DNA of 64,000 bases, taken from positions 2,256,835 through 2,320,834 of the forward strand of contig OY820579.1 in NCBI GenBank assembly GCA_963681965.1, read 5' to 3'. Below the pieces are notes generated by a model. The model saw only the letters and a list, made by a program, of their open reading frames with translations, searched no databases and was not told the origin of the DNA. Positions 50,384 to 51,340 of the stretch are shown here, in pieces. Positions within the stretch are counted from its first letter, which is position 1, and the number at the start of each line of letters is the position of its first letter. Position numbers and translations under genes: made by a program. This stretch comes from a bacterium. Its GTDB lineage: Bacteria > Electryoneota > JAOADG01.

Positions 50384-51340
50384 TGCTTTGTACGTGGTGC
50401 TTGGTGTTGAATGATTGGTGGTTGGGATCGTATTGCTGTAGGTCGGAACTTGTTCTGACCACCTCCTGTGTCTTGTCTTTAGTGGTGCAGGCTCGGAGGT
50501 TTGTGCCCTTTGAATTCGGAGGTAAGGCTTCAGCCTGACAATTCTGTACAGTAGCGGCGGACTTTAGTCCGCGTATTTATCATCGTAGCCGCAGGCTTCA
50601 GACTGCGCTATTTTTTTGAATATAGTAGGGGCGACCCTCCGCGGTCGCCCGCATCTTTTTAGGACACAAGAGGAGTCGGAATAAATTCCGACCTACGGAA
50701 AAGATCGGTGGTGGGGAATGGGTGGTAGGTGTTGGGAAAAGAAAAAAATACAAGAAGTGGTCAGAACAAGTTCTGACCTACGGAAAAGAAGATGCTCGCT
50801 GGATTTGAGGTTTGTGCCCTTTGAATTCGGAGGTAAGGCTTCAGCCTGACAATTCTGTACGGTAGCGGCGGACTTTAGTCCGCGTATTTATCATCGTAGC
50901 CGCAGGCTTCAGACTGCGTTTTTTTGTTGAATCTTGTATCTTGTAGTAGGGGCGACCCTTCGCGGTCGCCCGCATCTTTTTAGGACACAAGAGGAGTCGG
51001 AATAAATTCCGACCTACGGAAAAGATCGGTGGTGGGGAATGGGTGGTAGGTGTTGGGAAAAGAAAAAAATACAAGAAGTGGTCAGAACAAGTTCTGACCT
51101 ACGGAAAAGAAGATGCTCGCTGGATTTGAGGTTTGTGCCCTTTGAATTCGGAGGTAAGGCTTCAGCCTGACAATTCTGTACGGTAGCGGCGGACTTTAGT
51201 CCGCGTATTTATCATCGTAGCCGCAGGCTTCAGACTGCGCTTTTTTGTTGAATCTTGTATCTTGTAGTAGGGGCGACCCTCCGCGGTCGCCCGCATCTTT
51301 TTAGGACACAAGAGGAGTCGGAATAAATTCCGACAAGCTT
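50384..51340. repeat. BIME-like array: ~3 tandem copies of a ~315-bp composite unit built from five REP modules
   Basis: Unit contains gtaggtcagaacaagttctgacc, ggtagcggcggactttagtccgc, gtagccgcaggcttcagactgcg, gtaggggcgaccctccgcggtcgccc, gtcggaataaattccgac; the family-D module recurs at ~50551, 50862, 51183. Confidence 0.85.

Follow-up and report, generated by a model that had tools for sequence, protein, structure and literature searches.

The window analysed here is a stretch of 64,000 nucleotides (64 kb) of contig OY820579.1 from an uncultured bacterium of the Electryoneota (GCA_963681965.1), and its positions 50496-51334 carry a tandem array of a composite unit that occupies the 1.15-kb spacer separating the genes at 48878-50383 and 51535-53643. 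With a probability of roughly 0.8, this array is a cluster of GTAG-headed repetitive extragenic palindromes (REPs) that resembles a bacterial interspersed mosaic element (BIME) and was enlarged by two successive tandem duplications. Its elementary parts are short GC-rich hairpins with GTAG at the 5' foot, that is, the single-stranded DNA structure recognised by RayT/TnpA-REP tyrosine (HUH) transposases. The array is an instance of a known phenomenon, namely GTAG REPs and BIME-like tandem units, and not a new kind of system.

Structure of the Tandem Array

Tandem Repeats Finder (TRF) detected 2.6 copies of a 321-bp unit with 96% matches (score 1573). The first-pass annotation, which was made from the sequence alone, had described three tandem copies of a composite unit of ~315 bp. 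The array proved to be real and the ordered set of modules B, C, D, and E is present in three copies, but the period is 321 bp and the G-rich tract and module A occur only twice. TRF, blastn, and global alignments resolved the array (+ strand) into a partial unit 1 (50496-50739), a complete unit 2 (50740-51060), and a partial unit 3 (51061-51334). Global alignment gave 272 identical positions out of 274 (99.3%) for units 2 and 3, whereas units 1 and 2 shared 239 of 254 (94%) and were distinguished by a 10-nt indel in the linker between C and D. Chance juxtaposition of hairpins, for which the annotation had proposed pairwise alignment of the units as a test, is refuted because alignment is as good in the linkers as in the hairpins, and the similarity therefore extends beyond the individual hairpins.

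The order of modules in the 321-bp unit is A-, (F-), C2+, B+, C+, D+, E-. The internal A-type REPs (GGTCAGAACAAGTTCTGACC TAC as read on the + strand) are located on the - strand at 50759-50781 and 51080-51102. A degenerate F-type hairpin (GGTGCAGGCTCGGAGGTTTGTGCC) lies on the - strand at 50486-50510, with more-decayed copies at the equal phase of units 2 and 3, and a C-like hairpin with a decayed head (GTAAGGCTTCAGCCTGAC) is found on the + strand at 50522-50539, 50833-50850, and 51154-51171. The B-type REP (A/GGTAGC GGCGGAC TTTA GTCCGC; module sequence GGTAGCGGCGGACTTTAGTCCGC) occupies 50550-50572, 50861-50883, and 51182-51204, and the C-type REP (GTAGC CGCAGGC TTCA GACTGCG; GTAGCCGCAGGCTTCAGACTGCG) occupies 50585-50607, 50896-50918, and 51217-51239, all on the + strand; the three C copies share one stem mismatch and each is followed by a T-run. 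The D-type REP (GTAG GGGCGACC CTCCGC GGTCGCCC; module sequence GTAGGGGCGACCCTCCGCGGTCGCCC), likewise on the + strand, is present at 50625-50650, 50946-50971, and 51267-51292 and forms the left arm of a head-outward doublet with E. The E-type REP (GTCGGAATAAATTCCGAC CTAC on the + strand) lies on the - strand at 50675-50696 and 50996-51017, and its last copy (51317-51334) lacks the CTAC head, so that the array breaks off on the right precisely where the foot of the E hairpin would meet the absent head. The G-rich tract (GGTGGTGGGGAATGGGTGGTAGGTGTTGGGAAAAG) is located on the + strand at 50707-50741 and 51028-51062. At the left edge of the array, a single A-type REP (GTAG + GGTCGGAACTTGTTCTGACC; 50438-50460, + strand) is inverted relative to the internal A copies, and its 5' flank gatcgtattgct matched the unit of a 99-bp array at 24.7 kb in blastn.

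No open reading frame (ORF) of 100 aa or more was present within 50496-51334, and a coding repeat was rejected on this ground. A CRISPR array was likewise rejected, as the whole 321-bp period repeats at 94-99% without unique spacers.

GTAG-Headed Hairpins and Their Scaffold

In the window, 157 perfect hairpins that do not overlap one another were counted (stems of 7 bp or more, loops of 2-10 nt), compared with 20-44 in shuffled sequences, and 86 of these 157 carried GTAG at the 5' foot on one or the other strand. The association also held when hairpins were not pre-selected: with both strands counted, a hairpin with a stem of 6 bp or more came directly after GTAG at 98 of 174 intergenic sites but at only 7 of 188 sites in coding DNA, and control tetramers without GTAG overlap were hairpin-followed in 0-13% of intergenic cases. 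Intergenic DNA makes up 24.4% of the window. Only two of the 171 module matches were inside genes, both of them loose matches to the G-tract, and no REP hairpin module was found in a gene. The modules had already been called REPs in the annotation, and this identification is supported: they are genuine GTAG-headed REPs, with a head far above the controls, a strictly extragenic location, and, for B and C, a class of hairpins that flanks RayT genes elsewhere.

At least seven hairpin families were distinguished, including A, B, C, D (with several stem subtypes), E, F (with the head GTGG), and H. The fuzzy map cross-matches A and E, which have alike flanks and stem ends, and is sound for presence and location but not for the counts of A versus E. 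All families share a scaffold that consists of an optional C-rich tract, TCTTTTCC, GTAG, the hairpin, and a TCTTGTATC or T-rich tail, which in head orientation often reads NNTCTTGT(A/G)TC. Read on the opposite strand, the G-rich tract of the array is the C-rich stretch that extends the E and A modules at their 5' side. The window held 19 canonical G-quadruplex motifs, defined by four runs of at least three G's and loops no longer than 12 nt, compared with 2.4 ± 1.3 expected from Markov simulations, and nearly all of these corresponded to the tract that adjoins the heads of E, A, and D REPs. Examples include the G-rich tracts at 44932-44964, 54577-54607, 59252-59282, and 63809-63839, and the C-rich complements at 10179-10209, 15840-15871, and 45113-45144.

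Head-outward doublets consist of D, a conserved 25-nt spacer, and then E or A. The spacer GCATCTTTTTGGACACAAGAGG, written GCATC(A)TTTTTGGACACAAGAGG(A/T)G, occurs 18 times and is combined with no fewer than four kinds of hairpin on its left and two on its right, and D subtypes vary inside one and the same doublet scaffold. In a copy of the whole unit at 54290-54610, the D hairpin GGGCGACC..GGTCGCCC is replaced by the subfamily GGTGGCAT..ATGCCCCC, while the remainder is collinear; hairpins therefore vary, or get exchanged, inside a conserved frame. A more far-reaching explanation is a "scaffolded" REP system, in which a conserved scaffold of ~90 nt (a C-rich tract prone to form G-quadruplexes or i-motifs, TCTTTTCC, GTAG, an exchangeable hairpin, and the TCTTGTATC tail) accepts many hairpin cassettes, and the G-rich tract works in single-strand transposition or targeting instead of being a passenger. 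The exchanged hairpins at 54290-54610 and in the D-E/A doublets would be examples of such swapping. This explanation is speculative and rather unlikely to be correct. If true, REP diversification and runaway proliferation would have been caught in progress in a lineage without an earlier REP description, and this proliferation would have widened the spacers of operons, which measure roughly 0-20 bp without it, to 700 bp.

REP density was 1.3 per kb in the window, or about one per 160 bp of intergenic DNA, compared with three REPs in 9.7 kb (0.3 per kb) beyond it. Because of this lower density outside, the counts for the window are unsuited to genome-wide extrapolation, and with about 75 kb of the genome read, the window density is no guide to genome-wide numbers.

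The B/C Hairpin Class and Its Linkage to RayT

The exact B module matched only three GTDB representative contigs, none of which was from the source species. One of these matches, in an Omnitrophota metagenome-assembled genome, was part of a C+/B- inverted pair; another exact-B match (L005) was discounted as a coincidental match in coding DNA. The ORFs adjoining the REP doublets in contigs L003 and L004 were ordinary genes, with no RayT among them. A degenerate pattern for the B/C class (GGTAGC, stem, and TTYA loop; C-type core) was present in at least 120 JGI metagenome contigs (L016-L135) with G+C contents from 0.30 to 0.73, and a literature search with the C-type core sequence returned no match. 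Among these contigs, the 23-mer GGTAGCCGCAGGCTTTAGCCTGC occurred unchanged 81 times and was often paired with an inverted partner of different stem sequence. Its conservation across this range of G+C contents suggests either wide horizontal spread or a strong constraint imposed by RayT.

A search with the E. coli TnpA-REP sequence as a probe (verified against PDB 4ER8) identified RayT-like ORFs in three of the JGI contigs, L058 (139-691), L125, and L117 (5946-6570), which score as PF01797. All three ORFs were flanked by inverted GGTAGC-class REPs, and in L058 both flanking REPs abut the ends of the ORF. A profile built from these ORFs retrieved 3437 homologues, many of which were named "REP element-mobilizing transposase RayT" in their source, and a RayT of the Ignavibacteriota (L136, 9922-10572) had GGTAG REP doublets on both sides. 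Furthermore, the inner stem triplets of the GGTAGC class covary (GGC/GCC, ACC/GGT, CCC/GGG, AGC/GCT, GAC/GTC, and CAC/GTG), and 33 of 81 distinct sequences of the class pair at 7/7 stem positions. The B and C modules of the array belong to a RayT-associated REP class because REPs of the GGTAGC class flank RayT genes in other organisms.

Several observations weigh against the BIME-like explanation. No RayT gene was found in the window, in ~1.4 kb upstream, or in 10 kb downstream, and none of the 120 listed RayT homologues (of 3437) came from the contig of this genome. None of the other loci that were fetched showed a member of family A, E, F, or D1, and what connects these families with RayT is the GTAG head and the scaffold. 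In addition, B, C, and D are arranged head-to-tail, unlike the alternating orientation of classical BIMEs. If the BIME-like explanation is correct, this genome would presumably encode a cognate RayT.

Distribution of the Hairpins among Relatives

The sequence of the window is also contained, without differences, in ENA ERZ21878129 contig_1 (4,339,467 bp). Eight proteins encoded in the window were singletons when clustered at 90% identity. On the basis of NuoL, the three closest assemblies were 76, 70, and 68% identical, and the nearest named relatives (Zixibacteria, Calditrichota, KSB1, and similar lineages) were 55-59% identical. The nuo operon of the window contains REP clusters at 881-1603, 2657-2959, 3461-3960, and 4824-5059, and its nuoG-H-I-J-K-L junctions span 237-724 bp and hold many GTAG REP hairpins. 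The two more distant of the three assemblies have nuo spacers of roughly 0-20 bp: the one with 70% NuoL identity (L142) has no GTAG REP hairpins, and the one with 68% (L144) has four chance matches in or beside genes, none of which is REP-like. The closest assembly (L143, GCA_030247525.1; 76%) has nuo spacers of about 80-410 bp with six GTAG REP hairpins, some of which resemble families H and D of the window. Because the distant relatives are compact and REP-free, L143 carries six hairpins, and the window carries many, this series points to a recent lineage-specific invasion by the hairpins that is furthest advanced in this genome. Co-transcription of the nuo genes, if it persists, requires read-through of many hairpin/T-run structures. 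Only three homologues of the gene upstream of the array (48878-50383) were found, at 38% identity or less, and the locus of one of them in a relative (L012) is compact and uninformative about the array.

Genomic Context and RNA-Level Signals

The first-pass annotation had placed all arrays between genes for proteins secreted by the type IX secretion system (T9SS), which does not hold. The gene downstream of the array (51535-53643) encodes a BNR/Por_Secre_tail protein, but the upstream gene is hypothetical and lacks Por_Secre_tail, the C-terminal domain of T9SS cargo. The cluster at 53644-54767 lies between a T9SS gene and a gene for an ArsR-type regulator, and that at 44689-46697 fills a divergent promoter region of ~2 kb with a deaminase gene on one side and a hypothetical gene on the other. 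Since clusters also adjoin non-T9SS genes and fill nuo junctions, their proximity to T9SS genes is incidental. After the stop codons of two T9SS paralogs (53600-53690 and 59040-59095), the sequence aagta(g/a)ttcat(a/g)atatgaagta is shared and leads to a D-type REP, immediately at one of the two loci and ~25 nt later at the other. Duplication of the gene may thus have taken at least the first REP along.

The units could instead be primarily functional RNA, that is, terminators or stabilisers in 3' untranslated regions or tandem small-RNA genes that are kept by selection, with mobility being secondary. A REP in head orientation is indeed a hairpin with a T-rich tail, and terminator-like sites (GC-rich hairpin and T-run) were enriched approximately fourfold in the 44-64 kb region (84 vs. 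21.8 ± 5.2 expected). After several stop codons, the first REP is a D hairpin followed by a run of ~7 T's. In the regions examined, the B, C, and D heads are on the coding strand downstream of genes and A, E, and F are inverted, an observation rather than a statistic, as the regions are few and related by duplication. Whole-unit folding gave z-scores of -2.0 and -2.7, but the fold is only a string of local hairpins. At the gathering score, an Rfam scan of the whole window matched nothing but a tRNA (43315-43396), and in a lenient scan of 50300-51600 snoR113 was the only family to appear, with 19-21 bits where its gathering score is 47, which is no match above chance. Moreover, distant relatives make do with roughly 0-20 bp between the corresponding operon genes, clusters also fill the divergent promoter region at 44689-46697, and the near-identical tandem copies point to recent amplification rather than to a conserved function. 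A primary role as RNA is thus unlikely, but such a role and the BIME-like explanation are not mutually exclusive. As a likely side effect of REP accumulation, the stack of hairpins and T-runs may act as terminators, attenuators, or stabilisers of mRNA 3' ends.

Dispersed Copies and Origin of the Array

When unit 2 was used as a blastn query against the 64-kb window, the only full-length match besides the array was the diverged copy at 54290-54610 (+ strand, 83-84% identity), which is located 3 kb away. All other matches were sub-blocks with differing ends, including an inverted B-C-D-E-G block at 19474-19677 (- strand, 83.7% over 208 nt), a weaker inverted block from B to the G-tract at 15631-15831 (- strand, 78%), an A-to-B block at 31959-32105 (- strand), and partial blocks at 44972-45100 and 45304-45496. 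Recurrence of the module order elsewhere in the window, as the annotation had stated, was therefore confirmed at full length at 54290-54610 and in part at the last two sites. A D-E doublet with a G-tract at 62187-62278 (+ strand), in a spacer of 136 bp, was 94.6% identical to positions 206-297 of the unit and shows that the doublet also exists alone.

These copies bear on the annotation's proposal that the mosaics propagate as units. The linkers align in tandem as well as in dispersed copies, and sequence has indeed been copied in blocks; the copying is limited, however, to tandem or local duplication and to the reuse of smaller blocks, chiefly the D-spacer-E/A doublet. Because the only other full-length copy is 3 kb away, the 321-bp mosaic is not a discrete mobile element. 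This also argues against a composite miniature inverted-repeat transposable element (MITE), a non-autonomous transposon that would insert as one piece. Such an element would account for a second full-length copy, and the inverted A at 50438 could be read together with the internal A- copies as terminal inverted repeats. Nevertheless, that copy is the only one in 64 kb and stands beside a paralogous gene, the remaining matches are sub-blocks with different ends, and the D-E doublet as well as single REPs, which are smaller parts of the unit, are also found on their own. At the edges of the array, no shared termini, terminal inverted repeats, or target-site duplications were visible. Insertion as a composite MITE is accordingly very unlikely.

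REP hairpins and doublets have accumulated in intergenic spacers. Presumably a RayT that works on single-stranded DNA has spread them or, at the least, keeps them in place, as expected from the defining properties of the family (PMC2817692, PMC3733652, PMC8266576). The 321-bp block was duplicated in tandem twice, in an older event that is reflected by the 94% identity and a recent one that is reflected by the 99.3% identity. Neighbouring A or E modules, whose hairpins and flanks are identical over 30-40 nt, likely served as the sites of unequal exchange or replication slippage. Alternatively, the duplications may have arisen by RayT-mediated cutting and rejoining, and rejoining of this kind has been proposed for BIMEs (Nunvar et al., 2010, PMC2817692). 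That the array stops on its right side between the E foot and CTAC would fit a break at the point recognised by RayT, although it represents a single case.

Logan short-read contigs from the same sample (run ERR12015701; L002, L007, L009, and L011) measure 1.5-5 kb. They break off no more than about 100 bp from the ends of genes, and it is therefore the REP clusters that interrupt short-read assembly of this organism, which explains the shattering of such assemblies at intergenic regions. A long-read mis-assembly with an inflated copy number is highly implausible even though none of these assemblies independently crosses the array, as the copies differ by substitutions and a 10-nt indel at graded identities (94% vs. 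99.3%), four other arrays with different units occur in the same window, and the hairpins are intact.

Comparison with Known Repeat Systems

GTAG REPs, together with their dimers and clusters "reiterated in tandem," have been described as a superfamily (Di Nocera et al., 2013, PMC3733652). The REPs of the window share with it the GTAG head, the GC-rich stem of 6-10 bp, and the loop of 2-8 nt; they are likewise extragenic, occur in many copies, as dimers, and in tandemly reiterated clusters, and comprise several families per genome, with subfamilies that differ by complementary stem changes. Among individual REPs, that of Thioalkalivibrio (GTAGGTCGGCCTTCAGGCCGAC) resembles E/A, that of S. maltophilia (GGTAGCGCCGGGCCATGCCCGGCG) resembles B/C, and the loop CTT(C/T)AG of H. 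influenzae also resembles REPs of the window. In the 2013 survey, GTAG REPs were found only in Proteobacteria, Cyanobacteria, Chloroflexi, and the Planctomycetes-Verrucomicrobia-Chlamydiae (PVC) group (PMC3733652). The window differs from the surveyed cases in its uncultured host near Zixibacteria, Calditrichota, and KSB1, in the one long scaffold with a C-rich, G-quadruplex-prone tract that is common to all families, and in its high local density. RayT-type GTAG REPs and BIME-like arrays are thereby extended to this lineage, and the comparative series of REP-free compact operons, a close relative with few REPs, and a genome with many REPs can be used for studying REP invasion of operons and hairpin diversification.

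Inverted REPs have been described on either side of rayt genes, and BIME-2 elements as BIME-1-like units in tandem (Nunvar et al., 2010, PMC2817692). Similar to the BIME-2 and atypical BIMEs of E. coli, the array is a mosaic of REP types with conserved linkers and a variable tandem copy number between genes, and it has both the conserved linkers between REPs and the tandem reiteration of the unit that characterise the BIME-2 type. On the other hand, the unit of E. coli BIME-2 is one strictly alternating Y-Z2 pair, whereas the unit of the window measures 321 bp and contains five to seven different hairpins. Three to four successive REPs of this unit are arranged head-to-tail (B, C, and D in one direction, with E and A inverted), so the alternating orientation of REPs is not observed. 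The D-spacer-E/A doublet is comparable to the REPINs of Pseudomonas fluorescens (Bertels and Rainey, 2011, PMC3116915) in that two inverted REPs enclose a short conserved spacer. It also occurs both alone (62187-62278) and in arrays, as expected of a replicating unit. Unlike the arms of a REPIN, which have the same sequence, those of the doublet come from different hairpin families (D with E or A), and no long REPIN hairpin is possible. The BOX elements of Streptococcus pneumoniae are likewise intergenic and modular, with one module present in a variable number of tandem copies, but their modules are not known to carry a GTAG head or to be linked to RayT.

Other Arrays and Features of the Window

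A composite unit of ~216 bp had also been noted at 59088-59800, and TRF recovered it at 59092-59750 (+ strand) with a period of 217 bp, 3.0 copies, 97% identity, and the order D+, D'+, D5-, E-, G-tract. A further composite array (204 bp x 2.2, 92%; order E-/A-, F-, G-tract, B+, C+) was detected at 45301-45743 on the + strand. The array at 24746-25698 (+ strand; 99 bp x 9.6, 95%) repeats an A+/D- head-outward doublet (A+ REP, spacer, D- REP) that uses the 25-nt spacer of the D-E doublet of the 321-bp unit. The source annotation placed a 195-aa gene without a Pfam match (25135-25722, - strand) wholly within this array, and this gene call is probably spurious. A fourth array, at 57096-57357, consists of 2.2 copies of a 121-bp unit at 100% identity. 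The unit is bounded by the perfect palindrome GGGCGGTTCGCGAACCGCCC, of which the outer copies have outward GTAG heads and the middle copy is headless, and a diverged copy of its spacer lies near 54.0 kb (53990-54110). A 147-aa call without a Pfam match (57267-57710), in the repeat cluster at 56855-57829, overlaps the end of the 121-bp repeats and is likely another spurious ORF. At least two called "genes" inside repeat arrays are thus flagged as likely spurious.

A second type of repeat was observed at 53893-53962 and 57457-57605, where the ends AGATTGCTTCGTCTCTTCG ... CCTCGCAACGAC(A/C)AATCAGGATA are shared and the interiors are of unequal length. Similar "attgcgag...gaagcaatc" strings adjoin REPs in four of the metagenome contigs (L027, L031, L053, and L074). 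The stretch 32000-36200 has a low G+C content (0.31-0.42 vs. about 0.50) and may be an acquired island; it encodes a RelA_SpoT-domain protein, a nucleotidyltransferase (NTP_transf_2), and unknown proteins, and is preceded by two small called genes with matches to the barrel of TonB-dependent receptors or outer membrane proteins. Finally, several copies of GACTCTAGAG-like words (gactctagagtcc, gactctagagtaaagactct, and gactctagagataaagactc) at 46020-46230, in the unique part of the spacer upstream of the gene at 46698-47054, could be operator-like sites.

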